A stretch of 64,000 nucleotides of DNA from an uncultured Thermoleophilia bacterium (GCA_963715985.1 CAVQSP010000014.1:96001-160000); one strand, 5' to 3'; counted from the stretch's first letter, positions 1 to 48,576 are shown. The notes: generated by a model not told the origin, from the sequence alone. Numbers and translations are program-made.

Positions 1-937
1 CGCCACCGTCGAGCGGGCGGCCGCCTTCGCCAAGGAGCAGGGCGCGGAGATCGTGGTCGCGCTGGGCGGCGGCAGCGTCATCGACACGGCCAAGATCGTC
101 TGCGCGATCGCGACGCACGGCGGCGGCGTCCTCGACTACGAGGGGTATGACCTGATCCCCGGCCCTGTCACCCCGCTCATCGCACTGCCGACCACGTCCG
201 GTACCGGCAGCGAGGTCACGTTCTGGGCCGTCGCCACGGACGTCTCCCGCAACTACAAGCTTGCGGTGAGCAGCGTGCTGCTGGCTCCGAGTCTGGCCCT
301 GGTCGATCCGTTGCTGACCGTGAGCCTGCCGCCTGCGGTGACCGCGGGCACCGGGTTCGATGCGCTGAGTCACGCCGTCGAGGCGTATACGGCGCGGTGC
401 AGCAACCCGGTCAGCGATGCGCTGGCACTCTACGCGATCGAGCTCGTGGGGCTGAACCTCGAGCAGGCGGTGCGCGATGGAGCGGACGTGGAGGCGCGAT
501 GCGGCATGTCTCTGGCCAGCCTGACGGCCGGCATCTCTTTCGGGAATGCCGACACGTCCGCGGCTCACGCGATGGGTGAGGCGCTCGGCGGTCTCTTCGA
601 CACGCCTCACGGCTTGGCGTGCGCGGCCAGCCTGCCCTACATGACGCGCTTCAACCTGCCGGCGGTCCCTGAGAAGACCGCGCGGATCGGGCAGGCGCTG
701 GGCCTTCCGACCGCCGGCCTTCCAGTCCAGGAGGCGGCAGAGGCGACCGTAGAAGGTCTCATCGAGCTCGGGAAGCGAGTCGGTGTACCCAGCATACGAA
801 GCTTCGGCGCCACGGAAGGGGACATCCCGAAGCTGGTCAGCATCGCGATGCTGAACGTCGGCAACGCGGACAACCCGGTCGACGTCGACGAGGCAGTGTT
901 CACGGAGCTCTTCAAGGAAGCCCTCGCACAGGACTAG
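1..937 (+). CDS. Iron-containing alcohol dehydrogenase (5' truncated by window edge)
   Basis: GGGSVIDTAK, PTTSGTGSEVT, DALSHAVE and AHAMG...HG metal-binding motifs; frame open from window start; TAG stop 935-937. Confidence 0.9.
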   Translation, partial: ATVERAAAFAKEQGAEIVVALGGGSVIDTAKIVCAIATHGGGVLDYEGYDLIPGPVTPLIALPTTSGTGSEVTFWAVATDVSRNYKLAVSSVLLAPSLALVDPLLTVSLPPAVTAGTGFDALSHAVEAYTARCSNPVSDALALYAIELVGLNLEQAVRDGADVEARCGMSLASLTAGISFGNADTSAAHAMGEALGGLFDTPHGLACAASLPYMTRFNLPAVPEKTARIGQALGLPTAGLPVQEAAEATVEGLIELGKRVGVPSIRSFGATEGDIPKLVSIAMLNVGNADNPVDVDEAVFTELFKEALAQD

Positions 938-1165: not shown

Positions 1166-1496
1166 GACCTTTGTTCACGTGCGATTCTGCGAAACGAGGA
1201 TCGTGTAGGGGGAGAGTGCTCGGACCACGTCCATCGTGTGGCGTTCGTCGCCGGCAGTCGTCTGCGTGCCTGGGAGGCCGGATCCGGGCCTCGCGTGCCG
1301 GGGTGAGCGTTTTGGCGCGCGGCTGCTCGCGATTTACCGTCCCGATGCGAAGCCCCTGTGCGGCTCGGCCGTACGTTCGCGGCGTCGACCCGGCCACTCC
1401 CCGGCCGCGGGACCTCGGTAGGCGCCCCCAGGTGTCGAAAGGAGCGAGGCGACAGATGGAGAGAACGGTGATGAGTGTGGGCGAGGGGAGGCCGAC

Positions 1497-2441
1497 GTGA
1501 GCGTCCGGCTCTTCTTCGCCACGGACGTCCATGGCTCGGAGGTCTGCTGGCGCAAGTTCATCAACTCCGCCAAGCACTACGGCGCCAACGTCCTGATCCT
1601 GGGCGGCGACATGACCGGCAAGGCGGTCATCCCCATCATCGACAACGGGGGCGGCACCTACACGTTCCACATGCAGGACATCCGCCACGATCTCCAGGGC
1701 GCCGAGGCGCTGGCGGCCAATCGCGCGCGATCAGGATCACGGCTACTACCCCGTGGTCATGACGGCCGAGGAGGGGACCGAGTTCACCAGCGACCCCGAC
1801 AAGCTCGAGGAGCTCTTCCACGATCGATGCGCCAGCACTGTCAAGGACTGGGTCGCGTGGGCCGACGAGCGTCTCGAGGGCAGCGGCATGCGTGCATCGT
1901 CTGCCCCGGCAACGACGACCGACCCGACATCGACGGGCTGCTCGCCACGTCATCGCAGATCGAGGTGGGCGAGGGCAACATCGTCGACCTGCCGGACGGG
2001 ATACCAGCTGGCCTCCAGCGGCTACACGAACCTCACGCCCTGGGACACCCGCGGGAAGAGGACGACGGACAAGCTCAAGGCGCGCATCAGGGCATCGTCG
2101 CGCAGGCCACGGCGAGTCCCGAGCATCTGGTGATGGGCCTGCACGCGCCGCCGTACGACACGCAGCTCGACGTGGCGCCGAAGATCGACTGGGAGACGCT
2201 CACGGTGCAGGGCCAGGACTCCGCCCACGTGGGCTCCACCGCCGTCAAGGAGGTGATCGAGCAGGTCCAGCCCATCCTCTCGCTGCACGGGCACATCCAC
2301 GAGAGTCGCGCCGCCATCCGCATCGGGCGCACGCTGGCCGTCAATCCGGGGAGCTCGTACGTCGAGGGCACGCTCTCCGGGTGCGTCATCGAACTCGACG
2401 GCAAGAAGAAGATCAAGCGCTACAGGCTGACCAGCGGGTGA
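1497..2441 (+). CDS. Icc-like metallophosphoesterase (contains several compensating frameshifts)
   Basis: Motifs TDVHG, GGDMTG, CPGNDD, LHAPPY, LHGHIHE; the segment GYYPVVMT...WADERLEGSG lies in the frame of ORF 1753..2133, showing indels. Confidence 0.8.
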   Translation: MSVRLFFATDVHGSEVCWRKFINSAKHYGANVLILGGDMTGKAVIPIIDNGGGTYTFHMQDIRHDLQGAEALAANRARSGSRLLPRGHDGRGGDRVHQRPRQARGALPRSMRQHCQGLGRVGRRASRGQRHACIVCPGNDDRPDIDGLLATSSQIEVGEGNIVDLPDGIPAGLQRLHEPHALGHPREEDDGQAQGAHQGIVAQATASPEHLVMGLHAPPYDTQLDVAPKIDWETLTVQGQDSAHVGSTAVKEVIEQVQPILSLHGHIHESRAAIRIGRTLAVNPGSSYVEGTLSGCVIELDGKKKIKRYRLTSG

Positions 2442-2519
2442 GAGCCGCGGCGCCTGAAGAGCAGGGGGGACGGCGCTGGCGGGCCGTCCGAGGAGTCGGT
2501 ACTGGAGGAGGTTGGGCAT

Positions 2520-4159
2520 ATGGCGACAAATAAGCCCGCCGAACAGACGCTGTTCGTGCGAAAGGCCAGTGGTCTGGTCAAGGGCTGGTCGACTGGGGAC
2601 GGGTTCCGCTACTCGTTCTTCTCGACGAACATGTTCTTGGGGATCTGGGGCTTCCCTACGCCGTGTTCATCCCCGGCGGCAGCGTGTTCTGGCTGCCATC
2701 ATGATCTGTACCTTCGTGATTTCGAATTGTGGTGTACCGGGCCTGATCTCGGCGATGCCACGAGCAGGCGGTGACTACGTGTGGCAGTCACGCATGTTCC
2801 ACAGCTCGGTCGGCTTCGTGTTGGGGCCACCGGCTGGTGGTTCATCCTCTGGCTGTGGATCCCGATCTACGCCGCCCTGGGCGTGAACTCGTTCATCGAG
2901 CCCGATCCTGCGCATCGTCGGCGCGGACGGCGCCGCCGATTGGCTCGCTCACCAAGAACGGCGTCTTCGTCGCCTCGCTGGCGACGATCGCCCTTGCCGA
3001 CCTACCTCGTCGCCATCGGCATGAAGGCCTACGCCAAGTTCCAGAAGTGGGCCCTCTGGATCGGCCTTGGCGGGCTGCGCGGTGGCGGCCATCCTGCTGC
3101 TCGTGACCTCGAAGGCCAGCTTCATCGAGTCGTTCAACCGCGAGATGCTCGACCTGTACGGCGCCAAGGACGCGTACAGGCCACGCGTCGAGAGCGCCGG
3201 CGAGGGCATGCCGTCGTCCATGTTCGCCGGCAACGTCTGAGGACACGTTCAAGCTCATCCCGTTCATGGCCTTCTGGCTCCTGTGGCCGGTGTGGGGCGC
3301 CACGCTGTACGGCGAGGTCCGCGGCGCCAAGGACTTCCGCAAGAACATCTACCAGATGGCCGGCGGCCTCCTGGCGGCTGGTCGCCATCGTCATCGTCTT
3401 CCTGATCCTCGTGACGAAGACGATGGGCTGGACACTTCTTCGAGGCCACCGCCAACGGCTACATGGGTTCCCTGTACGCGTACATCGACCCCGCGACGCT
3501 GCCGGCCGGCAGCGACTACCTCTCGCCGACGGCGATGATCTCCTGGATCGTCGAGCAACAACGCCTTCCAGGTCGTCCTCATCGCGGTGATATCGCTGCT
3601 GGTGTTCGGCTGGTGGGGCACCGTGTTCCTCTCGTCGACGCGCATGATCTTCGCCTCGGCCTTCGACCGCATCCTGCCGGAGCGCGTCGCGAGGGTGACG
3701 TCGGGCGGCGTGCCGGTCAACGCGCTGCTGCTCATGGCGATCCCGTCGGTCATCGTCTCCGCCTTCTACGCCTACCAGCCCTCGTTCGTGCAGCTCACCT
3801 ACGACGCCACGCTGGTGATCGCCGTCATGTTCTTCGTCACAGGTCTCGCCTTCATGGTGATGCCGTGGCGCGCCAAGTCGATCTGGGACAACTCGGCGAT
3901 TCCCAAGATGAAGATCGCCGGCATCCCGATCCTGGCGATCGCAGCGCTCATCTACGCGATCTTCATGGGGTTCAACCTCTGGCTCTGGTTCTACGACAAG
4001 ACCAACACCTACGGCATCGGCTACAAGAACAAGAACTCCATGATCTTCATGGGCATCCTGTACGTCGCCGCCATCGTGATCTGGATCGTCGCCTGGGCCG
4101 TGCGCAAGCGCCAGGGCATGGAGCTCGAGGCTGTGGCCAAGGAGATCCCGGTCGAGTGA
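2520..4159 (+). pseudogene. APC-family amino acid/amine permease, multiply frameshifted (pseudogene or assembly error)
   Basis: N-terminal LFVRKASGLVK, MPRAGGDYVWQSR, YGEVRGAK, RMIFASAFDRILP, C-terminal KEIPVE spread over ORFs 2520, 2512, 2781, 3266, 3463, 3587; SD GGAGGAGG upstream. Confidence 0.8.
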
Positions 4160-4263
4160 TCGCCGCAGGCGGATCACCGTCGCGAGGTGACGGAGTCGCT
4201 GAGCGACAATGACTCGTCGAACAGGGGAACGATCGCGAGATTGATTCAGCAGACGCAGGCGCC

Positions 4264-4302
4264 GGCGGCGGCCCGGTGATCTTCCGGGCCGCCGCCGTCT
4301 CT
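4264..4302 (+). terminator. GC-rich hairpin between permease and mtbB
   Basis: GGCGGCGGCCCGG-TGATCTT-CCGGGCCGCCGCC followed by GTCTCT. Confidence 0.55.
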
Positions 4303-4405
4303 GCTCCCGAGTGGGCGTCGCGAAGATGCAGGCGCTCCGCATGAGATCCTCGTGGAGAGGAGCGTTCTACGTGACAACGCCGACGGCAGAGGAGGCCGCG
4401 CTTTC

Positions 4406-5806
4406 ATGAAGATCCTCACAAGAATGGGTGACAGCTCGAACGTCGAGCTGACACGCGACGAGCTGCGCCAGGAGTTCATCGAGGGCTCCGAGCTCGCCGC
4501 GAAGAAGGCCAAGATCCCCGTCCTCACCGAGAACGAGATCGACTACCTCGTCGACATGTTCGCGGCGCCCACGCGTATCTGGGGCGTGCAGCGCGGTAAC
4601 GAGGTCGTCATGACCAAGGACGGCTGCGTCAACGCCCTCAACTCCTCGCGCATGTCGAGCGGCGTGGTCGCTCCTGTCAACCGCGAGGTGGGCGTGCGCC
4701 TCTTCGAGTCGATGCTCGGCTTCGACTCCATGGAGGTCGCGCACAACGACTACTCCGTGAAGCCGCAGCGCTTCCTCAAGGCGCTCGAGCAGCTCCACAT
4801 GGAGATCCTCCAGGAAGTCACCATCTTCCCGCTGTTCTACGGCTTCATGCCCAACCTGGGCCTGTACTACCGGCCGGACGGCTCGTTCGAGAACCCATCG
4901 GACCTCATGCCGCTGGGCAAGATCCCGGAGGCGCGCCGCACGCAGGAAGAAGCGCTCGAGAAGTGCATGGAAGACTGCATGGAGATGAGCGACTGCATGC
5001 TCGAGATGGGCGCCGACGGCATCGACTACGACACCACCGCATCCACCGGCGACGCCGAGTTCCTGGCCGTGCTCAAGACCACCGAGCACGTGGCCGGCGA
5101 GACGGGTCTGCCCGTCGAGGTCGGCATGTCGGCCGAGATGGTGCTCGGCTTCCACGGCGAGCTGGAGTACAACGGCAAGCGGCTCGCCGGCATGTGGCCG
5201 CACCAGCAGCTGCAGGTCTGCGAGGAGGCCGGCGTCGCCATCTTCGGCCCGGTCAGCAACACCAACACCAGGAAGACCGTGCCGTGGAACCTCGCCCGCG
5301 CCCTCACCTTCGTGAAGGCCTGCACCGAGATCGCCAAGATCCCGGTGCACCCCAACGTCGGCATGGGCGTCGGCGGCGTGCCGATGTTCGAGACCCCCGC
5401 CGTCGACGTCGTGACCCGCTGCAGCGCGGCCATGATCGAGATCGGCCACGCCGACGGGTTGTAGGTCGGTACGGGCGACCCAGCCGGCATGCACATGGCG
5501 CATCTGCTGGCCTCGTCGATGGGTGGCATCCGGGCTACCGGAGATCTGGTGGCCCGCATGCAGCTCCAGAAGATGAGGATCCACGAAGCCAAGAAGTACG
5601 TGGCCGACAAGTTGCACGTGACGCCGCTCGACCTGTCCGATCCGACGATGATGCGAGGGCTCAGGGAAGAGCTCGACATCGGCGTTGTGACCGGCGTCCC
5701 GGGCGTCGCCAAGGGCATGGCCGCCAAGGTGCGCATCGCCGAGCTCCTCGACATCGAGATCAACAGCGTGGAGCAGTTCAAGAAGAAGACCGGTCTGCAC
5801 ATGTGA
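4406..5806 (+). CDS. mtbB: Dimethylamine:corrinoid methyltransferase MtbB, pyrrolysine-containing (amber readthrough at codon 353)
   Basis: SD AGAGGAGG then ATG 4406 (MKILTRMGD); ORFs 4352..5464 and 5489..5806 are in one frame, joined as [42 protein letters not shown], matching the MtbB DG(I/L)-O-(I/V)GxGDP...GDLVARM motif; 466 aa. Confidence 0.93.
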
Positions 5807-5909
5807 GCCGGCGGCTGGCGGCCGCGGCCTTCGGGTCGCGGCCGTCCGGCTCCAGCAGATCACGAGCCCCGGCCGCCTGAGGCGGTCGGGGCCCGTTGGC
5901 TTCTGACGC

Positions 5910-6031
5910 GCGCCCCTTGGGCGCGGGGCTTCCGCCGGGTGCGTGCGCCCCTTGGGCGCGGGGCCTCCGCCGGGTGCGTGCGCCCCTTGGGCGCGGGGCC
6001 TCTCGCCGGGTGCATGCGCCCCTTGGGCGCG
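5910..6031. repeat. Tandem 35-36 bp repeat, about 3.5 units
   Basis: GCGCCCCTTGGGCGCG at 5910, 5945, 5980, 6016 with near-identical intervening sequence. Confidence 0.9.
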
Positions 6032-6171
6032 CAGCGCGCCTCGACCGCCTCGCCTGCCCCGACCGCCGCCGCTCAGTCTCGCGCCCGTGTGTCCGCGGGC
6101 ATGTTCCGATCCGCGCTTTCAACTGGGCGTACGTTTGGACGTGTGGTTGCCTGAAACCGTCGTCGGGAACA

Positions 6172-6209
6172 TGCCGGCGCCTGCCGGCGCCTGCCGGCGC
6201 CTGCCGGCG
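6172..6209. repeat. 10-bp microsatellite (TGCCGGCGCC) x about 4
   Basis: atgccggcgc ctgccggcgc ctgccggcgc ctgccggcgg. Confidence 0.85.
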
Positions 6210-6290
6210 GCATCTCGCGCTGAGCGTGCCGTCGGCTGCCAGGGGCGGCCGCGAACGGCGTGCGCCTGCCGGCGCCGAGGCGTGGAAGCC

Positions 6291-7217
6291 TCACACGGCC
6301 TTGAGCCACTCCTCGTAGTCGCGGTGGGCGGCGTTGGCCTGCATGCGGTGGATGCGGTCCATGCCGTACCCGTAGAAGTCGAAGTCGAGCTTGGAGAGCG
6401 TGGCCTGGATCATCGCCCAGATGCTCCACCAGAGGTCGGCGACCAGCTTGTGGAGCATCATGCGCGCGTAGCGGTGCTCGTCCATGCCGCCGCAGTAGGC
6501 GGTGAGCACGGCCGTCTCCTCGTCCTCGGTGAGCGGGGTCTCCACGCAGAAGTCGCCGAGGTCGAAGTACGGGTCGCACATGCCGCCGTACTCCCAGTCG
6601 ATGATCCACATCTTGCCGTCCGGGGCGAGGATGAAGTTCTCGCTGAGCAGGTCGTTGTGACACGCCGTGAAGGCCGGCTGGTCGCGCTTCATCGCTTCTT
6701 CGATGCGCGCGCCCTGCTCGAGCATCCAGTCGGTCTCCTCGGGCCGCGGGGCGCCCACGTCCTGCGCCATGCTCAGGTACTGGCGGATCATGTCGAAGAC
6801 GTGGATCTCGTTGTCGAACACCGCCTTGTCGTGATACGTGCGCATGGCGGCGACGATCTTCTCCAGGCGGTCGGGGTGGCCGGCGATGCTCTCGGGGTGC
6901 ATGGTCTCGCCGGCGATGAACGGGACCACCGTGCAGTCGCCGGGCTGGATGACGTGCAGGAGCGGCGGCGTGACGCCGGCCGCCGCCGCCGCCCGGTGGT
7001 TGTTGAGCTCGCGGGTGCGGTCGATGAAGGTCTCGGTGCCCTCGCCGGGGATGCGCAGCACGAACTTGCCGGCGCCCGGGCTGCCGTCGGCGCCGTCGAC
7101 GGTCACCACGTAGTTGCGGTTGGTGATCCCGCCGCCGAGCTCCTCACAGACGATCTCCCTGCCCTGCCACTCGCCGATCCTCGCGATGACGTCATCGACG
7201 CTGATGCGCTCTGCCAT
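6291..7217 (-). CDS. Choline/ethanolamine kinase family phosphotransferase
   Basis: GGITNRNY, FVLRIPG, Brenner motif CHNDLLSENF, IDWEYGGMCDPYFDLG. Confidence 0.88.
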   Translation of the reverse strand: MAERISVDDVIARIGEWQGREIVCEELGGGITNRNYVVTVDGADGSPGAGKFVLRIPGEGTETFIDRTRELNNHRAAAAAGVTPPLLHVIQPGDCTVVPFIAGETMHPESIAGHPDRLEKIVAAMRTYHDKAVFDNEIHVFDMIRQYLSMAQDVGAPRPEETDWMLEQGARIEEAMKRDQPAFTACHNDLLSENFILAPDGKMWIIDWEYGGMCDPYFDLGDFCVETPLTEDEETAVLTAYCGGMDEHRYARMMLHKLVADLWWSIWAMIQATLSKLDFDFYGYGMDRIHRMQANAAHRDYEEWLKAV

Positions 7218-7338
7218 GTGTCTTCCTCACTCTGGTGTGTACGACTGCGACGAAACGGCCGGGGCCCTCGCGCTCTGGGGGGAGCATACGCGAGGGGCCC
7301 CGGCCGCGTCAGGGGGGACTGCGATCAGTGGACCCGTG

Positions 7339-8721
7339 TCAGAGGGCCGGGACCTCGAAGCCCATCCCGGCGAGGTCGGCGCGGACGTCGTCCATCGCCT
7401 TCTGGTACTCGCTGTTCACGATGGCCTTCGTCTTGGGGTCGTAGACCTCCTGGAAGGTCATGCCCTTGTCCGGGTCCTTCAGCTTGTCGCCGAAGAGCGG
7501 GAAGATCTTCTGGGCGATCGGCTCCGCCTCGGCGCGCGTGAGCTTGGCCGCCGCGAGGCCCATCTCGGCGTGGAACTTGTGGTCGTCCGGCACCAGCGAG
7601 TCGGACTGCACGGCCATGGCCGGGTGCCCGGAGAAGACGTTGCCGCCGGAGGTGACGATGGCGAGCAGGTAGCAGGCCATCTCGTAGTGGTACTGCTTGG
7701 TGCCCGAGCCGCCGCCCAGGTACGGCAGGTTGACCATCGGGTAGCCCATGTTGCGGCCGATGGCGGCGTTGCTCATGGCGATGGCCCAGATGAGCGGCTT
7801 GGTGGACGAGAGGTGCAGCTTGCTGTGCAGCGGCGCGTTGTAGTGGTAGGTGCCGCGGAAGACCAGGTTGCCCATGATCATGTAGGCCGTGGCGGTGACG
7901 GCCACGCCCTCGGCGCCGCCCGCGTACCCGCCGAAGAGCGGGGTGGAGGTGGAGCCGATGTTGGCGCTGATGCTGTTGTAGAAGGCCACCTTCTGCAGCG
8001 CCTCGTACCCGACGACCATCTCGGAGAGGAAGTCGATGAGGAAGCCGTCGCTCGGGCGCAGGCCGAAGTCCGGGTAGCTGGCCGCGAACATCGAGGCCGG
8101 CTGAGAGGCGGCGGAGATGCCGTTGATGATCGGGAGGCCTGAGCGGCCGGAGCGGCGGATGCCCTCACGCGCGAGACGCACCGTCTTGCAGGCGGCGAGG
8201 ATCTCCTGCGGCGAGCGCACGCGGGAGTCCTTGCCGCGCAGGTGCAGGATGCTGGGCACGCTCACCGAGTCGACGATGTTGAAGGACGCCATCTTCTCGA
8301 CGGTGTCCATGAACACTTGTTCGTCGGTGGTGTAGATGCCGCCGCCCACGTGCACCCACGGGCGGTCGTCAGTGGTGTCCGGGCGCCGCCCGTACATGGT
8401 CTTGCGCTCGCGGCCCTCGCCGAAGGTGGCGCCGTTGGGGGCCTGCGAGCAGGCGAGCAGGATCTCGTCGCGCGTGAACTGCATCACGCGGTTGGTCTCC
8501 GGGCAATACGCCCCGGCCTCGGCGATGAGGTCCACGGCCGCCTGGAAGACGCGGTCGGTGAGGTCGTCGTCGGTGTTGATGATGGTCGCCTTGTCCCACT
8601 TGACCGCGTGGCGCGCGATCACCTCGGCGAGGGTGGGCACGTAGCGCTTCATGTAGTAGTCGGTCTCGGACGTGAGCGGACCGGTCTCTGCGCGGTCGAA
8701 CACCTCGATCAGGTCGATCAT
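7339..8721 (-). CDS. mtmB: Monomethylamine methyltransferase MtmB-family protein lacking pyrrolysine
   Basis: FDRAETG, GAYCPETNRV, SPQEILA, PLFGGYAGG, GMTFQEVYD match MtmB; the Pyl region GRPGMGV-O-GPETS reads GRSGLPIINGISAAS with no TAG. Confidence 0.85.
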   Translation of the reverse strand: MIDLIEVFDRAETGPLTSETDYYMKRYVPTLAEVIARHAVKWDKATIINTDDDLTDRVFQAAVDLIAEAGAYCPETNRVMQFTRDEILLACSQAPNGATFGEGRERKTMYGRRPDTTDDRPWVHVGGGIYTTDEQVFMDTVEKMASFNIVDSVSVPSILHLRGKDSRVRSPQEILAACKTVRLAREGIRRSGRSGLPIINGISAASQPASMFAASYPDFGLRPSDGFLIDFLSEMVVGYEALQKVAFYNSISANIGSTSTPLFGGYAGGAEGVAVTATAYMIMGNLVFRGTYHYNAPLHSKLHLSSTKPLIWAIAMSNAAIGRNMGYPMVNLPYLGGGSGTKQYHYEMACYLLAIVTSGGNVFSGHPAMAVQSDSLVPDDHKFHAEMGLAAAKLTRAEAEPIAQKIFPLFGDKLKDPDKGMTFQEVYDPKTKAIVNSEYQKAMDDVRADLAGMGFEVPAL

Positions 8722-8769
8722 TGTCTGGCTCCTGTGCTGGCGGGTTCGCGGGTCGGCTGACGGTCGCGG

Positions 8770-9417
8770 TCAGGAGACCAGCTTGCTGGCGAGGGTGACC
8801 GCATCGTAGGCGTTGGCGGCCCAGCCGTCGGCGCCGATGGATGCGGCCCACTCCTCGGTCGTGGCACCGCCACCGACCATGACCTTGTACTTGTCGCGCG
8901 TGCCCTGGTCCTTGAGTGCGTCGATGACGTCACGCTGACCGATGAGCGTGGTGGTGAGCAGCGCCGACATGGCGATGATGTCGGCGCCGACCTCGTTGGC
9001 CTTGTCGACGAACTTGAACAGGTCCACGTCGATGCCGAGATCGTGGACCTCGTAGCCCGACGTCTCGAAGAGCAGCTTGAGGATGTTCTTGCCGATCGAG
9101 TGCAGGTCGCCCTTGACGGTGCCCAGCACCACGATGCCCTTCTTGGGGCCGCTGCCGCCGGCTTCCTTGATCAGCGGCTCGAGAACGCCCATCGCCGCCT
9201 GGAAGGCGAGCGCCGACTGCATCAGCTCGGGCAGGAAGATCTCCTCGTCCTCGAACTGCTGGCCGATGACGTTCAGGCCGGGCAGCAGGCCCTGGTCGAT
9301 GATCTCCTGCGCGCTCATGCCGTCGGCGAGCGCCTTGTCGACGGACTCGAGCACGGCGTCCTGGTCCTGGTCGACGACGGCCTGCTTCAGCTGGTCATGC
9401 ATCGCTTCGTTTCCCAT
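8770..9417 (-). CDS. Methyltransferase cognate corrinoid protein (MtmC/MtbC/MttC family)
   Basis: Cap domain FEDEEIFLPELM; B12 motif GTVKGDLHSIGKNI, MSALLTTT, MVGGG. Confidence 0.93.
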   Translation of the reverse strand: MGNEAMHDQLKQAVVDQDQDAVLESVDKALADGMSAQEIIDQGLLPGLNVIGQQFEDEEIFLPELMQSALAFQAAMGVLEPLIKEAGGSGPKKGIVVLGTVKGDLHSIGKNILKLLFETSGYEVHDLGIDVDLFKFVDKANEVGADIIAMSALLTTTLIGQRDVIDALKDQGTRDKYKVMVGGGATTEEWAASIGADGWAANAYDAVTLASKLVS

Positions 9418-9477
9418 GAGTGACTCCCCTCGTCTGCTTGCGTGTCTGTGAGTTCGTGCGTGCGCGTGCCCGCGGGC

Positions 9478-10932
9478 CTACGCAGTGACCTCGGTGTCGG
9501 TCCACACGGCGTCGCCGGCCACGAGGCCGGGGAACTCCGCGCGGATGCGCTCGTCCAGTTCGGCCTCCCACACGGCCGGGTTGGGCTGGGACAGGATGCC
9601 GCGGGCCACGGCGCGCGCGCGGCTCTGGGCGTCCGGCTTGCCGGCCGCCTCCCACTGCGCGCGCATGCCGCGGTCGGCGACCTTGGGGAAGAGCGCCGTG
9701 GTCTTCATCAGCGACTTGGTGTGGCGGCTCTTCATGTAGTCGCCGCCGGGGCCCACTTCGGCGATGACATCCAGGGCGAGGTTCTCCTCGCTGTAGTCCA
9801 GGCCGCGGACGACGCGCTTGTTCATCAGCGCGATCTCGTCGTCCACCACGGCCTTGCCGAAGTCGAAGGCCATGAGAGAGCTGAACAGGCCGCCCATGTT
9901 GAGCAGCGTCGCGCCGGCCAGCACCGAGGCCATCGTGTTCATGCCGGTCTCGTAGCCGGACTGGGCGTCGTTGCTGTGCGCGTTGGTGAGGCCGATGTAG
10001 CCACCCGTGGGCACGTGGTAGAAGTGCCCGAGCTGGGCCTGCGCCATGAAGAGGACGCCGCTCTCGATGGCGCCGGGCGCGTAGGCGCCGCTGCGCATAT
10101 CGGCGACGGTGGGCAGGCTGGCGTAGATCAGCGGCGTGCCCTCCTTGACCATCTGCTGGAACACGGAGATGGCGAGGAACTCGGCGTTGCCGACCACAAG
10201 GGTGCCCATGAGGGTCATCGGCGAGGTGAGGCCGGCGTTGGGCACCACGGTGGTGTACACCGGCAGGCCCTCGCCGGTGAGGTACATGACGGCCTCGGTG
10301 GAGTCCACGTCCATCGTGAGCGGGCTCACCATCGGGCAGTAGTGATGGTTGATGCAGGGGCGCTCGCGGTAGGCGTCCTTGCCGCCGGCGATGAGCTCGC
10401 CGAGCTTGAGGACCTGGTGCAGGTCGTCCATGTTGGGCGTGTTGCTGCGTACCGGCTTCAGGCAGTTCTTGAGAGCCGGGTAGAAGCGGCTCAGGCTGAA
10501 CTGCCCGACGGGGGCGTCGTCGGCCAGCGTGGAGATGGAGAAGATGTCGAAGCCCTTGAGCTCGTTGATGAGGTGGGCGATGTTGGCGATGTCGGTGGAC
10601 GTGGCGCGCCGTTCGACGCCGGTGACCGGGTCCACCACGTTGGGCGCGGAGCTGCCGGTGACGACCACGGGGCCGCCGTCGGGGATGGTGCGGTCGAACT
10701 GCGGGTCGCGGCCGCGGAACGTGAAGCGCGGCGGCACGGCCCGCATGTAGCGGTCGACGATCTCCGGCGAGAACTTGACGAGGCCCTCGTCCGATACGGT
10801 GCAGCCGTGGGCCTTGAAGACGTCGCGTGCCTTTGGGTGGTGCGCGAGAATGCCCACGTTCTCGAGCACCCAGAGCGACGCCTCGTGGACGCGTGCCACC
10901 TGCTCTGTGGTGAGCAACTCTGCGTACTTCAT
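9478..10932 (-). CDS. mttB: MttB-superfamily methyltransferase, non-pyrrolysine (MtgB/MtcB-like)
   Basis: VHEASLWVLENVG, GLTSPMTLMGTL, DMRSGA, DAQSGYE, VVDDEI, IAEVGPGGDY; Leu at the Pyl-equivalent site (YIGLTNAH); TAG stop. Confidence 0.9.
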   Translation of the reverse strand: MKYAELLTTEQVARVHEASLWVLENVGILAHHPKARDVFKAHGCTVSDEGLVKFSPEIVDRYMRAVPPRFTFRGRDPQFDRTIPDGGPVVVTGSSAPNVVDPVTGVERRATSTDIANIAHLINELKGFDIFSISTLADDAPVGQFSLSRFYPALKNCLKPVRSNTPNMDDLHQVLKLGELIAGGKDAYRERPCINHHYCPMVSPLTMDVDSTEAVMYLTGEGLPVYTTVVPNAGLTSPMTLMGTLVVGNAEFLAISVFQQMVKEGTPLIYASLPTVADMRSGAYAPGAIESGVLFMAQAQLGHFYHVPTGGYIGLTNAHSNDAQSGYETGMNTMASVLAGATLLNMGGLFSSLMAFDFGKAVVDDEIALMNKRVVRGLDYSEENLALDVIAEVGPGGDYMKSRHTKSLMKTTALFPKVADRGMRAQWEAAGKPDAQSRARAVARGILSQPNPAVWEAELDERIRAEFPGLVAGDAVWTDTEVTA

Positions 10933-11119
10933 GCGGACCCGGTCCTCCCTTGAGGGCGCCGGCGGGCGAGCGACCCACTCGCCAGAGTGCCGGCGGCTTG
11001 TGGCCGGCGCCCGGGGGTCCTGTGCGGACCTCTCCGGCTCACGCCGAGCCCCATCTCTGACGGCATATCGCGATCCGGCCTCGCACGGCCGGCTTGTGGT
11101 CCGTGTGAGCGGGTCACGG

Positions 11120-11902
11120 TCATGCGGAGACCACCCGCAGGCCGCGGCGCAGCATCTCGTCGCGCACGTCCTCGTCCACGTCGTCGACGACGACCGTCTG
11201 CACGTCGTCGAGGCCGCAGATGACGAAGTCGCCCACGGCGCCGAGCTTGCTGCGGTCGGCGAGCACGATGACCTCGCCGCGCGTCTGGCGGATCATGGCG
11301 CGCTCCACGCCGGCGAGGCCGATGCTCGCCGTGGTCACGCCCTCCTCGAGGCTGAGGCCGTCCGCTCCGAGGATGAACCGCGAGGCGTGGAAGCTGCCCA
11401 CGGCCTCGATGGCCATGGGCCCCTCGAGGGTGTTGCTGTGCGGCCGGAAGACGCCGCCGAGCAGGATGACCTCGAGCGCCGAGTCCTGCGCGGACGTGAG
11501 CGCGCCCACGTTGTGGGTGACGATGCGCGCGTGGACCTGCGTGTCGACGTGCGCGAGCACCTGGGTCGCGGTGGTGCCGGACCCCAGGAACACGGTCTCG
11601 CCGGGGAGGATCATGGCCGCGGCGGCGCGGGCGATGCGGTCCTTCTCGGCCGTGTGGGTGCGCACGTTGGTCACGTAGCGGGGCTCCTCCACGATGTGCT
11701 GCTTCAGGATAGCGCCGCCGTGGGTGCGCGAGAGGAGTCCGTCGTTTTCGAGCCGCTCGAGGTCGCGGCGGATGGTCATCTCCGAGACGCCGAGGACCTC
11801 GCTGAGGGACGAGACGCGCACGCCGCGTTGCTGGGCGAGGATCTCAAGGATCCGCCCCTGGCGCTCGGCGGGAAACATCTCGCGCGTGTCGGGCGCTGAC
11901 AC
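11120..11902 (-). CDS. DeoR/GlpR family transcriptional regulator
   Basis: ERQGRILE, GVSEMTIRRDLERLE, RTHGGA, EKDRIA, GSGTT, ADRSK. Confidence 0.93.
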   Translation of the reverse strand: MSAPDTREMFPAERQGRILEILAQQRGVRVSSLSEVLGVSEMTIRRDLERLENDGLLSRTHGGAILKQHIVEEPRYVTNVRTHTAEKDRIARAAAAMILPGETVFLGSGTTATQVLAHVDTQVHARIVTHNVGALTSAQDSALEVILLGGVFRPHSNTLEGPMAIEAVGSFHASRFILGADGLSLEEGVTTASIGLAGVERAMIRQTRGEVIVLADRSKLGAVGDFVICGLDDVQTVVVDDVDEDVRDEMLRRGLRVVSA

Positions 11903-11962
11903 CGCTCCCCCATGGCTGTGAAGTGTTGCCAGAATCGCTCAGATTCGAACGTAGTCTCTCGC

Positions 11963-11990
11963 ATCTTAGGCGCGCATGCACGAAAGTCAA
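11963..11990 (-). promoter_or_regulatory. Sigma70 promoter of the deoR-mttB operon
   Basis: Minus strand TTGACT, 16-nt spacer, TAAGAT. Confidence 0.6.
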
Positions 11991-12055
11991 GCGTGAAGAA
12001 GTGTTCGAGTGTGTGTCCGGGTGGGAGAGCGCTTCCGCTCCGGACGGGGACGAGC

Positions 12056-12089
12056 GACGGGCGGCGGGCCTTTCGGCCCGCCGCCCGTC
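12056..12089. terminator. Terminator hairpin downstream of cydB
   Basis: GACGGGCGGCGGGCC-TTTC-GGCCCGCCGCCCGTC perfect 15-bp stem. Confidence 0.7.
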
Positions 12090-12171
12090 TCAGGAGGTCT
12101 GCTTGTGCTGCGGCGGCGGCCTGGTGAGTGGTGCACCTACGGCGCCCCACTCGTTGACCCGGCTGCGCCGG

Positions 12172-13191
12172 TCAATAGTCCGCGTCGGCCGCCTTTGTCT
12201 TGCCCCAGAACGTCTTGTACACGAGCGCCGTGTACACGAGCACGATGGGGCAGAAGATGAGCGCCACGATGAGCATCACCAGCAGCGTCAGGTGACCCGA
12301 CGAAGCGTTGGTCACCGTGAGGCTGGTCTCTGGCGGCGTGCCGCGCGCCGGCACCATGTCGGGGAAGTTGCCCACGGCGGCGATGCCGGCCAGCCCGATG
12401 ATGATGACGGCCGAGCCGAGGAACGACTTGAGCTCGCCGCCTTCCTTCATCATCTGCCAGGCCGTGTACAGCACGCCGAGGAGGAAGATGACGAGGAACA
12501 GCCAGCCGGCCGGCCGGCCGAACACGTTGTCCGACGCGCGCGAGACCCAGAGGATCGTCGCCAGGGACGTGGCCACGGCCAGCACGGCGCACACCACGAA
12601 GCTCAGGCGCCGCCACTTGAGGGCGCGCTCGTGCAGCTCGCCCTCCGACTTGACGGCCAGCCAGGCCGCGCCGTGCTGTGCGATGAGACACAGCCCGGTC
12701 ACGCCGACCAGTAGCGAGTACGGGTTCAGCAGCTCCCAGAAGGTGCCGATGTAGTTGCCCTGCGCGTCCATGGGCACGCCGCGGATGACGTTGCCGAGGG
12801 CGACGCCGACCAGGAGAGCAGGCACCAGGCTGCCGAGGAAGAAGGCGCCGTCCCACACTCTGGCCCAGCTCGAGTCGCGGTGGCGGAACTCGAGCGACAC
12901 CGCGCGCAGGATCAGGCCGAAGAGCACGAGCATGATGGCCAGGTAGAACCCACTGAAGGTCATGGCATAGATCATGGGGAAGGCGGCGAAGATGGCGCCG
13001 GCGCCGGTGATGAGCCACACCTCGTTGCCGTCCCAGATGGGGCCGATCGAAGCACGGATGACGGAGCGGTCGGCTTCGCTGCGCCCGAGGAAGGGGTACA
13101 GCACGCCGGCGCCCAGGTCGAAGCCGTCGAGGATCACGTAGCCGGTGAGCAGGAACGCGACGAGGAAGAACCAGATGTTGGCCAGGGTCAT
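12172..13191 (-). CDS. cydB: Cytochrome bd ubiquinol oxidase subunit II
   Basis: LDGFDLGAG, IGPIWDGNEVWLI, LILRAVSLEFR; start at MTLANIW. Confidence 0.95.
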   Translation of the reverse strand: MTLANIWFFLVAFLLTGYVILDGFDLGAGVLYPFLGRSEADRSVIRASIGPIWDGNEVWLITGAGAIFAAFPMIYAMTFSGFYLAIMLVLFGLILRAVSLEFRHRDSSWARVWDGAFFLGSLVPALLVGVALGNVIRGVPMDAQGNYIGTFWELLNPYSLLVGVTGLCLIAQHGAAWLAVKSEGELHERALKWRRLSFVVCAVLAVATSLATILWVSRASDNVFGRPAGWLFLVIFLLGVLYTAWQMMKEGGELKSFLGSAVIIIGLAGIAAVGNFPDMVPARGTPPETSLTVTNASSGHLTLLVMLIVALIFCPIVLVYTALVYKTFWGKTKAADADY

Positions 13192-15431: not shown

Positions 15432-15791
15432 GGGGGCGAACAGGTCTCGACATGGGCTGTACCGCGGTGGGAGCAGCAGGCCGAGGTCCGGTGGCCTCGT
15501 TAAACTGCCGGAACACACTACTTGCCGAGAATAACTCTCTCGCACTCGCTGCCTAATTAGTTAGGCAACGCATCGCGCCCGGCTCGCCCATGGCCGGGAT
15601 CCGCGGTGTCATCTAGTGGGCTGGGGTGCGGTCGCTCTGCTCCGGGCGAGCGCATCCGAGACTGATCGGGGCTGGCGACCGGCACCCCTGCCGACGCGGG
15701 GGCCGCGAGCGAGACTAATGCGACGGCTAAGCCTGTAGAGACTCCGCCGAGGCGTCCGTGGACGCGGGTTCGATTCCCGCCGCCTCCACCA
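15432..15791 (+). ncRNA. ssrA: tmRNA; tag peptide AENNSLALAA
   Basis: 5' GGGGGCG pairs with 3' CGCCTCC-ACCA including the G3.U alanyl identity pair; T-arm GCGGGTTCGATTCCCGC; tag frame 15524-15556 ends LALAA-TAA. Confidence 0.95.
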
Positions 15792-45020: not shown

Positions 45021-45168
45021 GACTGTGGAATAGAAACACAACACACGATGTCACTGTGGCATTGATTGCGTAGTCGTCACCGCCGCAGGTATCAGAGACA
45101 CGATGCAAGCCAACAGCCGCTCGTCGCACGGCCGGACCGGCGAGCGGCTCACACCATGGAGGTGGATC

Positions 45169-46224
45169 ATGGCCGATCAGCACGACACGTACACAGGCGC
45201 CACGCTGGTGCAGGCGCTGCGGCTCGGCGAGCGACAGGCTCACGGGCCGCTCGCCGTCTTCCCGCTCTTCCTGGAGCGGCATGGGGAGGGTCACGGGCGC
45301 CCGCACTTCATCACGCTGAGGCAGGCTCTCGGTGAGGGGCGCGCCCTCATCACCGAGGTCGACGAGGGCGGCTCGGTGCCGGAACTGCGTGTGGTCAACA
45401 AGGGCGACGCGCGCCTCCTCATCGTGGACGGTGAGGAGCTCCGCGGGGCCAAGCAGAACCGCGTGCTCAACACCAGCATCCTCGTCGACCACTTCGCCAC
45501 CATCGTCGTCCCCGTGAGCTGCACCGAGCGGGGGCGCTGGTCCTACGCCACGCGCGAGTTCGCCGAGAGCGAGATCGTCGCCGAGCGGCAGGTACGGTAC
45601 GCCATGCGCGAGACCACCCAAGCCTCTCTCGTGCGCGGGGCCGGCCACCTTGCCGATCAAGGAGAGGTGTGGAGCGAGGTCGACGCCATGCACGCCCGCC
45701 AGCACACCGCCTCGCCCACGAGTGCCATGCGCGACGCGTACCAGTACAAGAAGCGCGACCTGGATGCCGTCATCGCCGCCTTCCCGCTGCAGGCGGAGCA
45801 GAACGGCGTGCTCGTTCTGCACGGCGACCGCGTGGTGGGGCTGGACCTCGTCTCGCGCTCGCCCCAGTACGGCGAGCTCCACGAGAAGCTGCTGCGGAGC
45901 TACGCCTTCGAGGCGCTCGTCAGCGACGGCGAGCCCGGCGACCGCGCCGTCGCCGACGCCTTCCTCGAACGCATCGCCGGCCTGTCCGGCCGGCGCTTCA
46001 AGAGCCCCGGCCTCGGCTGGGACGTGCGCTTCGAGGGCGCCGGGGTGCTTGGCTCGGCCCTCGTGTACCGCGGCCGTACCGTTCACGCCGCCTTCTTCGA
46101 CGTCGGCGGCGCCATCGGCCACACGGGCGACGTCGCGGGCACTGCCGGCGAGGGCCGGCCGCGCGTCATGGACTGGCGCATCGCCGACGCCCGCGAGCGC
46201 GCTCGCCGCAGGGGCATGCGCTGA
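45169..46224 (+). CDS. ARPP-1 (DUF6569) family protein
   Basis: EVDEGGSVPELRVVN, DGEELRGAKQNRVLNTS, PVSCTERGRW, QGEVW, KLLRSYA; SD GGAGG before ATG 45169. Confidence 0.75.
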   Translation: MADQHDTYTGATLVQALRLGERQAHGPLAVFPLFLERHGEGHGRPHFITLRQALGEGRALITEVDEGGSVPELRVVNKGDARLLIVDGEELRGAKQNRVLNTSILVDHFATIVVPVSCTERGRWSYATREFAESEIVAERQVRYAMRETTQASLVRGAGHLADQGEVWSEVDAMHARQHTASPTSAMRDAYQYKKRDLDAVIAAFPLQAEQNGVLVLHGDRVVGLDLVSRSPQYGELHEKLLRSYAFEALVSDGEPGDRAVADAFLERIAGLSGRRFKSPGLGWDVRFEGAGVLGSALVYRGRTVHAAFFDVGGAIGHTGDVAGTAGEGRPRVMDWRIADARERARRRGMR

Positions 46225-46260
46225 CCGGCACGTCGCCGGTCCGATCAGAGAGGAGACACC

Positions 46261-47109
46261 ATGCCGAAGAACAGGGACGATCGCGAGAAGGCCTACAGGG
46301 CCGCGGCCGCCATCACGCGCGAGCAGCTCAGGCGCGACGCGCCGGAGCGGGCCCGCGCCCTCGACGAGGTCGAGAAGAGCGACGTCGTGGTGGTCGCCGG
46401 CACCTACGACCACGTGGAGTCCGTGCTGTAGGCGCTGGACGTGCCGCACACGGTGATCTACGTCGGCGCCGTGGACCGGCTTCGGCTGCGCCCCGAGCAG
46501 CTGCTCATCGTCAACTGCCCGGGCCAGGTCTCGCCGCGGGGCGTCACCCGCATCCGCCGCTTCGTGGAGGAGGGCGGCAGCCTGTTCACCACCGACTGGG
46601 CGCTCAAGTACGTGGTTGAGCCGGCGTTCCCGGGTGTGCTCGCCTTCCAGAAATCGCCGACCGCCGACGATGTGGTGCGCATCGAGGTCAACGACCACGA
46701 CAACATCTACCTGCAGGGCGTACTGGACGGCCAGGACGATCCGCAGTGGTGGCTGGAGGGCTCCTCGTATCCCATCACCATCCTCGACCCGGAGCGCGTG
46801 CAGGTGCTCATCACCAGCCGCGAGCTCGGCGAGAAGTACGGAGAGACCCCTGTGGCCGTGTGGTTCCGCTGGGGCGAGGGCGATGTGTTCCACATGATCA
46901 GCCACTACTACCTGCAGCGCACCGAACTGCGCACGGCGCGGCACCAGAGTGCCGCCGCCGGCTACTTCGCGGAGAAGGGCGTGGCGATGAGCCAGGCCAT
47001 GGTCCGCGAGTACGCCGACCTCAGTCTGGCCGACGTCGAGTCGGCCAAGCCTTCGGCCGCCTTCATGGCCAATGTGATCATCGAGAAGAGGCGGAGGCGG
47101 AAGCCCTGA
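46261..47109 (+). CDS. Class I glutamine amidotransferase-like hypothetical protein with in-frame TAG at codon 57
   Basis: SD GAGGAG then ATG 46261; VVAGTYDHVESVL-TAG(46429)-ALDVPHTV in frame with ORF 46441..47109 (VNCPG, FVEEGGSLFTTDWA). Confidence 0.75.
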
Positions 47110-47197
47110 ACGTCGCTGCGGACACGGGCTGCGCCCGACAAGGCTGAGCGGCGGAGCCCGACCCGTGAGGCACCGAAGGACCGTCGCCGTCAACGGG

Positions 47198-47236
47198 ACG
47201 GGGCGGCGGGGCGCTGTGCGCCCCGCCGCCCCGTTT
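47198..47236. terminator. Terminator hairpin
   Basis: ACGGGGCGGCGGGGCGC-TGT-GCGCCCCGCCGCCCCGT-TT. Confidence 0.75.
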
Positions 47237-47256
47237 CAGGCGCTGCATGTGGTCTT

Positions 47257-47454
47257 TCAGGCTACGTTCTCGTGCTCGTCACGCATGTGGTCAAGCCACG
47301 TCGCGCAGGCCATGAACTCCTCGTCGCAGGTCACGCAGCGGTACTTCTCCGCCTCGTGCGACTCGGCGTGCGCGGTCTTGATGTGGTGCTCGAGGACGTG
47401 GAACGTATCGAACTCCGCTTTGCAGTGAGGGCAGGGATACATCTGCATGCTCAT
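47257..47454 (-). CDS. Small protein with two C2H2 zinc fingers
   Basis: YPCPHCKAEF..LEHHIKTAH and YRCVTCDEEF..WLDHMRDEH; SD AAAGGGGG. Confidence 0.8.
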   Translation of the reverse strand: MSMQMYPCPHCKAEFDTFHVLEHHIKTAHAESHEAEKYRCVTCDEEFMACATWLDHMRDEHENVA

Positions 47455-47612
47455 CGCCGGGCCCCCCTTTCGTTTGGTGGGTAAACACCAAGCGCGTAGT
47501 TTTTACCCACCTATGCCCGGCCTGACACTACGAAACTCGCACGCCATGCGGCCGACAACGACGCCGGGCGCAGACAAGCGGGGACACTCTAGATTGAACG
47601 AAGGGAGCTGGG

Positions 47613-48164: not shown

Positions 48165-48223
48165 AGGGGGCTGCAGCGACGCCGGCGGGGCCGGTGCCCG
48201 TCCCCGCGGCCTCGCGTCCAGAG

Positions 48224-48270
48224 TGCATGCGCGCATGCATGGTTGACAGCATGCGATTGTGAACTACGCT
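48224..48270 (+). promoter_or_regulatory. TA operon promoter with palindromic operator
   Basis: Perfect palindrome TGCATGCGCGCATGCA (48224-48239), TTGACA 48243-48248, TACGCT 48265-48270. Confidence 0.65.
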
Positions 48271-48330
48271 GAGCTTGCACCGGGTCGCGTCGCGGCCCAG
48301 ACCCAGATCATGGAGCACGGAGCCGCCGTC

Positions 48331-48573: not shown

Positions 48574-48576
48574 GTC

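Follow-up and report, generated by a model that had tools for sequence, protein, structure and literature searches.

The 64,000-nucleotide stretch of DNA analysed here, which we refer to as the window, comes from an uncultured Thermoleophilia bacterium (GCA_963715985.1, CAVQSP010000014.1:96001-160000; G000:C14:96001-160000 in our numbering) and carries a gene cluster in which members of all three methylamine methyltransferase families, MttB, MtmB and MtbB, lie together with a kinase of the choline/ethanolamine family, kin. Comparison with related genomes suggests that this locus is best read as a rearranged copy of a conserved co-directional array: deoR, X, mttB, a corrinoid protein gene, mtmB, kin, a metallophosphoesterase gene, a permease gene and an mtbB with a pyrrolysine (Pyl) codon, where X encodes a second kinase, similar to MthK of Eubacterium limosum. 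We hypothesised that the cluster couples kinases to the corrinoid-dependent demethylation of a choline-type amino alcohol by way of its phosphate ester, and give this proposal an even chance of being right. An earlier note, made from this sequence alone, had reported the three methyltransferase families, the kinase, the deoR regulator and the permease, which Pfam matches and a TAG codon at the Pyl site of mtbB confirmed. It placed the locus at 4406-11902, with the phosphoesterase (1497-2441) and the permease (approximately 2478-4159) falling outside, and the MthK-like kinase X of the relatives was missed.

Conservation of the array in Thermoleophilia

We collected 64 loci centred on MtmB, with orthologues 82-95% identical to that of the window, from a species-representative genome collection. 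The related loci are from Thermoleophilia/Actinomycetota metagenome-assembled genomes (MAGs) of wetland, peat and sediment origin. Genes were counted by tblastn of the window proteins on flanks of 6-8 kb, some contigs being taken more than once, and each denominator given below is the number of loci with enough flank for that count. The corrinoid gene and mttB lie upstream of mtmB in 49 of 51 loci, the two misses being one split hit and one Coriobacteriia contig end, and so does deoR in 44 of 45. A kinase of the kin family is found directly 3' of mtmB in 34 of 50 loci. Co-conservation of the kinase had been named beforehand in the earlier note as the refuting test, and the outcome was favourable, also beyond Thermoleophilia, where kinases lie beside Pyl-free mtmB and corrinoid genes in Spirochaetota.

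Where 6.5 kb or more of sequence follows mtmB (38 loci), mtbB occurs within 6.5 kb of it in 25. The most complete form, with kinase, phosphoesterase, permease and mtbB all on the mtmB strand, was seen in 16 of the 38, and a further four carry phosphoesterase, permease and mtbB on that strand without the kinase. The inverted form of the window was seen in two. Two more have a second deoR-phosphoesterase-permease set ahead of the kinase, with mtbB converging, and five have duplicated kinase-phosphoesterase-permease sets without mtbB. Three loci are partial, comprising one with the kinase alone, one with kinase, phosphoesterase and permease, and one with the kinase and a converging mtbB. Identity of the downstream kinase to that of the window spans 45-82%, a far wider range than the 82-95% for MtmB, which indicates that the slot has been kept while paralogues were exchanged within it.

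Conservation on the kinase side is weaker. Among 47 kinase-centred loci, mtmB was found in the flank of 11, mtbB of 19 (17 of them converging on the kinase), deoR of 34 and the permease of 31, and the phosphoesterase lies beside the kinase or the permease in 33. A single co-location of the three families could arise by chance in this genome, because it holds more than 60 mttB, 11 mtbB and seven mtmB genes. The conservation across genomes is what is remarkable, and the cluster is not a product of chance.

As a separate observation on mtmB, one related locus (L073, 9616-12516) has mtmB followed by a 967-residue fusion of a GcvT-like folate-binding aminomethyltransferase and a serine hydroxymethyltransferase domain.

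Methyltransferases of the cluster

The mttB gene (9478..10932, minus strand) encodes 484 residues and belongs clearly to the MttB superfamily, with PF06253 scoring 287.8 bits against a threshold of 25 and residues 4-464 covering positions 31-489 of the 500 in the profile. It falls short of the equivalog model for the Pyl-dependent trimethylamine enzyme (TIGR02369, 351 bits against 525) and has no internal stop. The residue aligned to the Pyl of PDB 7XCL is Leu315, as the earlier note's call of a Pyl-free enzyme would have it. Gly310 and Leu315 are kept in 59 of 59 orthologue matches (not de-duplicated). Gly310 and Asn345 occupy the positions of Arg312 and His348 in MtgB, and both are invariant in eight type-b sequences, as we call the group to which this protein belongs. 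The window MttB shares just 25-34% identity with its paralogues in the same genome and is 59-68% identical to MttB proteins encoded after MthK-like kinases in Firmicutes, Deltaproteobacteria and Anaerolineae. We assign it to a second, uncharacterised, kinase-linked MttB clade, type b, which spans several phyla.

The stop codon of mttB is TAG, and the 60 bases from there to the start codon of the corrinoid gene are in frame and open (9418-9480). We considered a fusion of MttB and the corrinoid protein made by TAG read-through. Among 50 distinct mttB orthologues, 20 end in TAG and 11 are in frame and open to the corrinoid gene; because so few share the TAG end and the open frame, the fusion was rejected as probable chance.

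MtmB (7339..8721, minus strand; 460 residues; PF05369, 225 bits) matches its family over residues 2-454 with no internal stop. In the alignment to PDB 1L2Q (E 5e-41), Pyl202 of the Methanosarcina barkeri enzyme falls on Ile199, so that the protein is a Pyl-free member of the family and not a monomethylamine methyltransferase in the strict sense. The tripeptide Ile-Ile-Asn at 198-200 is present in 67 of 67 orthologue matches (not de-duplicated). The superfamily is a small one, with 771 representatives at E of 0.001 or below among 1.84 billion, and among these 771 only two full-length relatives are more than 50% identical to the window protein, at 70% and 57%.

The third gene, mtbB (4406..5806, plus strand), is interrupted at codon 353 by an in-frame TAG (5462-5464), and PF09505 matches with 427 bits before this stop and 144 bits after it. 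With the TAG read through, the protein passes the dimethylamine methyltransferase equivalog model (TIGR02368, 498.4 bits against a cut-off of 369.1). The TAG is kept in all 45 orthologue matches at least 70% identical, which come from related loci and were not de-duplicated. MtbB of the window type is 82-90% identical between genomes, compared with 43-63% to ten paralogues in its own genome and 52-63% to the mtbB of that genome's canonical Pyl island. These values place the window mtbB in an orthologue group of its own, which appears to be kinase-linked.

Pyrrolysine decoding and methyl transfer would depend on genes elsewhere in the source assembly (4.35 Mb in 22 contigs, 70% G+C, 88.8% complete, 7.3% contamination). 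PylS (316 bits) and PylD (199 bits), both above their cut-offs, are encoded away from the locus, and ARAGORN found no tRNA-Pyl in the 3.7 kb around pylS. TAG terminates about one fifth of long frames with high third-position G+C (250 of 1,299). RACo and Pterin_bind genes were identified at G000:C11:149.6-151.9 kb. Methyltransferases are abundant: TAG is present at the Pyl site in about 10 of the more than 60 mttB matches, in all 11 mtbB copies and in two of the seven mtmB copies, for a genome total of about 80 such genes, with many mixed clusters. The Pyl methyltransferase paralogues share just 43-63% identity, and the presence of so many in a single genome hints at a substrate range wider than the three simple methylamines.

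Two kinases associated with the cluster

The kinase of the window, kin (6291..7217, minus strand; 308 residues), is a LicA-like member of the choline/ethanolamine kinase family, with PF01633 scoring 110 bits against 29. It aligns with PDB 3DXQ (E 9e-41) and with LicA (PDB 4R77, E 7.5e-24), and in both alignments the motifs HNDLLSEN and IIDWEYGGMCDPYFDLGD (IDWEY...D) have counterparts; we take these to be the Brenner phosphotransferase motif and the choline-kinase motif.

X is a 408-residue, MthK-like kinase of the APH family and lies between deoR and mttB in most relatives. In the window no MthK-like kinase occurs within three genes of mttB; in most relatives one does. The X homologue of this genome is at G000:C14:78416-79846, about 26 kb upstream and next to a deoR paralogue of 70% identity; no in-frame sequence was found there for the N-terminal 100 residues of the kinase. 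From the published kcat of 13.8 per s and Vmax of 17.3 µmol per min per mg (PMC12155760) we calculated a mass of about 48 kDa for MthK, a size that fits X and not the 308-residue kinase of the window. We place X with MthK.

Relatives of the kinase were also observed in other settings. Two loci (L025, 7127-13880; L033, 7887-13901) carry deoR, a kinase 62-65% identical to kin, a 270-340-residue protein with no Pfam match, the phosphoesterase, an APC permease and an argD-like class-III aminotransferase; this set, which includes no methyltransferase, may serve an amino-alcohol route. The class-III aminotransferase found beside kinase-phosphoesterase-permease sets was looked at for a link to phospholyases and is argD-like, with no specific match. 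Within the source assembly, two contig ends that are 98% identical across 9.9 kb (G000:C2:10001-19928 and G000:C15:172689-182566) both bear a 51%-identical paralogue of the window kinase, and represent either a strain variant duplicated in the bin or a true repeat.

Recurrence in other phyla

The linkage of kinases and methyltransferases recurs across phyla. Relatives of X were found in Firmicutes, Deltaproteobacteria, Anaerolineae and Spirochaetota. Of the 59 X loci that come from beyond Thermoleophilia, 37 encode, within 6 kb, an MttB at least 56% identical to that of the window, and in these 37, too, the MthK-like kinase lies within three genes of mttB. The loci that pair X with a type-b MttB include those of Sporomusa malonica, S. 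acidovorans, many Desulfosporosinus and Acetobacterium. One Firmicutes locus (L153) reads X, an EamA transporter, MttB, a corrinoid protein, a pterin-binding methyltransferase and a HAD phosphatase. In Spirochaetota, kin and/or X lie beside a corrinoid gene and a Pyl-free MtmB (38-56% identical), together with RACo, a pterin methyltransferase and an ABC importer, and no MttB was found at these kinase-MtmB loci.

Five Firmicutes loci (L197, L198, L200, L202 and L208) have a TAG-bearing MttB, with the TAG at the Pyl site, beside X. A kin-like match is also present in L197, L198 and L208, and a type-b MttB in L197, L198, L200 and L202; L208 (4212-8260) is from Ca. Formimonas warabiya and L202 (958-10185) from a Dehalobacterium sp. 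In different lineages, kinases of the kin and X types thus accompany Pyl-free MttB, Pyl-free MtmB, Pyl-MttB and Pyl-MtbB.

Two of the Spirochaetota loci (L186, 3603-10687; L188, 3560-13132) each combine a pair of Pyl-free MtmB paralogues, with 56% and 42% identity to the window protein, with two corrinoid genes, X and two kin-like kinases, and have no MttB.

Proposed pathway and alternatives

We propose the following route. The APC permease would import the amine, and kin or X would phosphorylate its hydroxyl group. The type-b MttB may then demethylate the quaternary amine phosphate, most probably phosphocholine, with the Co(I) corrinoid protein as methyl acceptor, and MtmB and Pyl-MtbB could act on phospho-dimethylethanolamine, phospho-monomethylethanolamine or the free alcohols, with pyrrolysine needed only for the secondary amine. 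The metallophosphoesterase would strip the phosphate from an end product. A pterin-binding methyltransferase would pass the methyl group on from the methyl-corrinoid to tetrahydrofolate, and an activase of the RACo/RamA type would reactivate the corrinoid; both genes exist elsewhere in the genome, as described above. DeoR may sense a phosphorylated intermediate. The effectors of DeoR regulators are usually sugar or polyol phosphates. A stepwise removal of three methyl groups between phosphocholine and phosphoethanolamine is attractive because there would be three methyltransferases for three methyls, with Pyl only in the secondary-amine family. In its complete form the relay would strip all three choline methyls as the phosphate ester, the type-b MttB taking the quaternary amine, the Pyl-free MtmB the tertiary amine and Pyl-MtbB, as a specialised paralogue, N-methylethanolamine phosphate; we put this forward tentatively and regard it as unlikely to hold in full.

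The coupling of kinases to demethylation is favoured by the published mth precedent, which acts through phosphocholine, by the choline-demethylating enzyme MtqB, and by the RACo and pterin genes of this genome. Choline supports methylotrophic growth of S. malonica (PMC12155760), whose single X-like kinase adjoins a type-b MttB, and so phosphocholine stays a reasonable guess as the type-b substrate.

Several observations weigh against our proposal. With regard to MttB, the comparison is with MthB. No E. limosum protein stood among the best 120 matches listed for the Clostridia and Acetobacterium type-b MttB proteins, and MthB was therefore represented by gene arrangement in the family that includes the Acetobacterium MAG. 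Five genomes there carry an X-like kinase of 33-34% identity, and in two of them (G034 and G036) it is divergent from an MttB-EamA-pterin methyltransferase-corrinoid set, as described for mth (PMC12155760). Taking the MttB of these two genomes as the presumed MthB, a choice made by gene arrangement in place of the E. limosum sequence itself, we found 27.7% identity to the window MttB, no higher than to its in-genome paralogues. On this comparison the window MttB is not an MthB orthologue. The presumed MthB, again as chosen by arrangement, carries an arginine that aligns with Arg312 of MtgB; the window clade has Gly310 there. This arginine is reported to be kept in MthB and all characterised MttB enzymes for acidic quaternary amines and to bind the acidic group of the substrate (PMC13080624). 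Because Gly310 takes its place, phosphate binding as in MthB is not supported for type b by the sequences. MtbB, which passes the dimethylamine equivalog cut-off, may for that reason simply use dimethylamine, and to our knowledge there is no precedent for a Pyl-free enzyme acting on a tertiary amine. The layout of the window also counts against the proposal, with the mtbB unit forming a separate, converging transcription unit and X absent from the locus. So do the 16 of 50 MtmB loci that have no directly adjacent kinase, the six of 38 with none of the downstream partners, and the 21 of 47 kinase-centred loci with no methyltransferase or corrinoid gene in the flank. Finally, EutB (ethanolamine ammonia-lyase) was not found in this genome, whose 88.8% completeness means that its absence is not thereby shown.

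The 21 kinase loci without a methyltransferase imply that the kinase family works in other contexts too. It has to be asked, then, whether the kinase has nothing to do with the methyltransferases and has stayed beside them by descent alone, as a kinase of aminoglycosides, thiamine or some other small molecule; the Joint Genome Institute (JGI) labels its relatives 'thiamine kinase-like enzyme', and as the close relatives are all of one class, their gene order could be inherited. However, the slot 3' of mtmB has been kept despite exchange of its occupant for paralogues of 45-82% identity, and the pairing recurs in Spirochaetota and Firmicutes with other gene orders. We consider an unrelated kinase highly improbable.

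A second alternative is that the mechanism is kinase-coupled as proposed and the substrate is another hydroxylated methylated amine, such as homoserine or serine betaine, or a methylated amino alcohol of lipid or plant-litter origin. For X the nearest models are those of type-II homoserine kinases, at just 64 bits, and kin matches no NCBIfam equivalog, the best being GntI at 178 bits, below the cut-off of 357. In the type-b MttB the Arg312/His348 pair found in the known enzymes is missing, and the permease is of APC type, compared with the EamA type of the mth cluster. Choline itself is nevertheless indicated by the affinities of kin, which is closest to choline kinases (LicA, 3DXQ, PF01633), by the adjacent alcohol dehydrogenase, whose nearest model is the GbsB choline dehydrogenase, and by choline-grown S. 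malonica (growth: PMC12155760), in which the only X-like kinase sits beside a type-b MttB. A different amine of this kind therefore seems to us rather unlikely.

It is also conceivable that the locus is an island of independent modules that share a neighbourhood, and perhaps a regulator, with no relay between them. The modules would be a kinase-dependent MttB for one quaternary amine, an MtqB-like MtmB acting directly on choline or tetramethylammonium, and a Pyl-MtbB of the ordinary dimethylamine kind with a permease to itself. The equivalog score of MtbB (498 against 369 bits), the roughly 80 methyltransferase genes and many mixed clusters of the genome, the inversion of the mtbB unit in the window, the loci in which kin or mtbB is wanting, and the use of unphosphorylated choline by MtqB (PMC13044021) all fit such an island. 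They have to be set against the 16 of 38 loci in which kin, phosphoesterase and permease lie between mtmB and mtbB on one strand, the separate orthologue group of the window mtbB (82-90%, against 52-63% to the canonical-island mtbB), and the kinases that accompany MtmB in Spirochaetota and Pyl-MttB in Firmicutes. Weighing the two sets of observations, we think independent modules unlikely, at about the level of the complete relay.

Layout of the locus, flanking genes and assembly quality

In the window, a plus-strand unit of dehydrogenase, phosphoesterase, permease and mtbB genes converges on the minus-strand unit deoR-mttB-corrinoid-mtmB-kin. All five minus-strand genes have full-length Pfam matches. 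The regulator gene deoR (11120..11902, minus strand; PF00455 and PF08220) is the first of its unit and encodes the HTH_DeoR and DeoRC sensor domains, with scores of 68 and 129 bits. Upstream of it lies a weak sigma-70-like promoter match (11963..11990, minus strand), which is a consensus match only; the scan of 4100-12300 gave this one site against 0.5 expected from shuffles. No terminator-like sites were found in 4100-12300, and a repeat search of 10900-12200 gave no convincing operator. The corrinoid protein, with a B12-binding domain (8770..9417, minus strand; PF02310 and PF02607), is encoded between mttB and mtmB. Among NCBIfam models it comes nearest to MtgC (231 bits) and MtbC (207 bits), reaching the cut-off of neither.

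The first gene on the mtbB strand is an iron-type alcohol dehydrogenase (PF00465 and PF25137), the 3' part of which occupies 1..937 on the plus strand; its start, at about G000:C14:95534, is before the window. At full length its best NCBIfam model is the GbsB-type choline dehydrogenase, at 368 bits below the cut-off of 550. It is followed on the plus strand by the calcineurin-like metallophosphoesterase (1497..2441), which has a weak PF14582 match, and by the APC-superfamily permease (approximately 2478..4159), seen as PF13520 and PF00324 fragments.

Both of the last two genes contain frame changes. The phosphoesterase is 61% identical over 315 residues to an intact homologue in L064 and probably bears a compensated pair of frameshifts near 1650-1830. 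The permease is split over three frames in the assembly, the tblastn pieces lying in frames 3, 1 and 2, and its homologue is unbroken in L056, L007, L104 and L010. When public wetland contigs were compared with the window, indels of 1-2 bases were confined to the permease (2824-3434) and the spacer between mtbB and the kinase. Because the homologues are intact in relatives and the public contigs differ by indels, the frameshifts at 1400-4200 are probably assembly errors and not gene decay, and we rejected the idea that the two genes are decayed pseudogenes. The assembly as a whole shows many single-base frame changes. Those at 1400-4200 are typical of long-read assembly errors, and other genes of the assembly are probably affected.

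Contigs from one rice-paddy RNA-library run are 92-95% alike over mtbB, mtmB, the permease and the phosphoesterase. They come from relatives, carry-over of DNA is possible, and the parts left uncovered carry no meaning; for the first two reasons we did not count these contigs as evidence of transcription.

Elsewhere in the window we noted a transfer-messenger RNA gene (15432-15791, plus strand) with the tag peptide AENNSLALAA. A region at 45034-48915 encodes an ARPP-1 domain protein, a macro-domain protein and a toxin of the PemK/MazF family with a small upstream open reading frame. A B12-dependent dehydratase of the propanediol/glycerol type is encoded at 51764-54304 (minus strand), its large and medium subunits in one 847-codon frame, and a short-chain dehydrogenase gene adjoins it and is divergent from it. 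At 56284-63998 (minus strand) is an operon for a branched-chain-type ABC importer, followed by an APC permease gene that is cut by the window end. The best model for this permease is the trimethylamine N-oxide permease, at 576 bits below the cut-off of 690.

Significance

Plant litter and membranes are rich in choline and its partly methylated relatives, whose fate in wetlands decides whether the methyl groups go into trimethylamine and methane or into bacterial biomass and acetate. The cluster is a defined, conserved set of nine genes that builds on enzyme precedents of 2025 and 2026. The linkage of this uncharacterised MttB clade to MthK-like kinases extends over at least five groups at phylum level (Firmicutes/Bacillota, Deltaproteobacteria/Desulfobacterota, Anaerolineae, Spirochaetota for the kinase-MtmB pair, and Thermoleophilia). 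Current names, the tri-, di- and monomethylamine methyltransferases and the 'thiamine kinase-like' enzyme, misstate the likely pathway.

The cluster also offers a direct way to ask whether pyrrolysine enzymes accept substituted amines. If the complete relay were true, MtbB would be the first enzyme with pyrrolysine to act on anything but mono-, di- or trimethylamine. The 10-11 Pyl-MttB and Pyl-MtbB paralogues of wetland Thermoleophilia would then have diversified towards substituted tertiary and secondary amines, and the same diversification would apply to the Pyl-MttB encoded beside kinases in Peptococcaceae and Dehalobacterium.

Comparison with known systems

The closest described system is Mth of E. 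limosum (Jiang et al. 2025, PMC12155760). There, MthK (WP_052237066.1) is reported to phosphorylate choline, MthB (WP_341455952.1), a protein of the MttB family, methylates MthC with phosphocholine only, and MthA hands the methyl group to tetrahydrofolate; the mth cluster also encodes an EamA transporter, and mthK is divergent from mthB. The earlier note's idea of a phosphorylated choline-type substrate sits well with this system, in which MthK makes phosphocholine for MthB. Its statement that no description of the gene combination was known has been overtaken, as the grouping of a kinase, a Pyl-free MttB and a corrinoid protein was published in 2025 (PMC12155760) and a choline-demethylating Pyl-free MtmB in 2026 (PMC13044021).

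The window cluster and Mth have in common a kinase, a Pyl-free MttB and a corrinoid protein, and the relatives have an MthK-like APH kinase directly before mttB and the corrinoid gene. The Firmicutes locus L153 has the same parts as the mth cluster described in that paper, except for its HAD phosphatase (PMC12155760). Beyond these, the locus in the window also encodes a Pyl-free MtmB, a second kinase of LicA type, a metallophosphoesterase, an APC permease and a Pyl-MtbB. No MthK homologue is in the window. The route described for Mth in E. limosum ends at dimethylaminoethanol (PMC12155760).

For MtmB the relevant precedent is MtqB of Methanococcoides methylutens Q3c (ACT9XH_RS04775), a Pyl-free MtmB homologue with a conserved pocket of Met, Cys and aromatic residues that takes methyl groups from tetramethylammonium and, more effectively, from choline (Kashyap et al. 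2026, PMC13044021), and to which, according to that paper, the first function of a Pyl-free MtmB was assigned. In both cases, as compared by description only, a Pyl-free MtmB homologue is encoded beside a corrinoid gene (mtqC in the methanogen). MtqB is a methanogen enzyme that uses unphosphorylated choline and feeds coenzyme M (PMC13044021), whereas the window MtmB is bacterial, is followed by a kinase and shares its corrinoid gene with MttB.

The window MtbB resembles the MtbB/MtbC system of Methanosarcina in its full-length equivalog match, in the TAG at the conserved site and in the presence of PylS and PylD in the genome. In contrast to that type, its partners are a kinase, a phosphoesterase and a permease, and not Pyl-MttB and Pyl-MtmB. 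Similarly, kin shares its Pfam family and aligned catalytic motifs with LicA of Streptococcus pneumoniae and with 3DXQ; it matches no curated equivalog, and its context, unlike that of LicA, is catabolic. LicA serves the decoration of the cell wall with phosphocholine. As for the physiology of such a relay, Watkins et al. in 2012 reportedly observed that Methanococcoides demethylates choline stepwise to ethanolamine, an account of growth and not of enzymes.

Actinobacteriota of this group have been described, for a thawing mire, as the most versatile of the expressed methylotrophs, with Pyl mttB and mtbB expressed in the genus Bog-752 (Ellenbogen et al. 2023, PMC10805028); the main text of that study makes no mention of mtmB or kinases. 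A literature search on phosphocholine, MttB and corrinoid proteins yielded nothing on this cluster, and one on pyrrolysine in Thermoleophilia nothing related, although the tables of co-localised homologues in the Mth paper may include type-b members. Set beside these systems, the parts of the cluster are of known kinds, and what is new is the conserved combination of nine genes, the type-b clade of MttB and the kinase-linked group of Pyl-MtbB.

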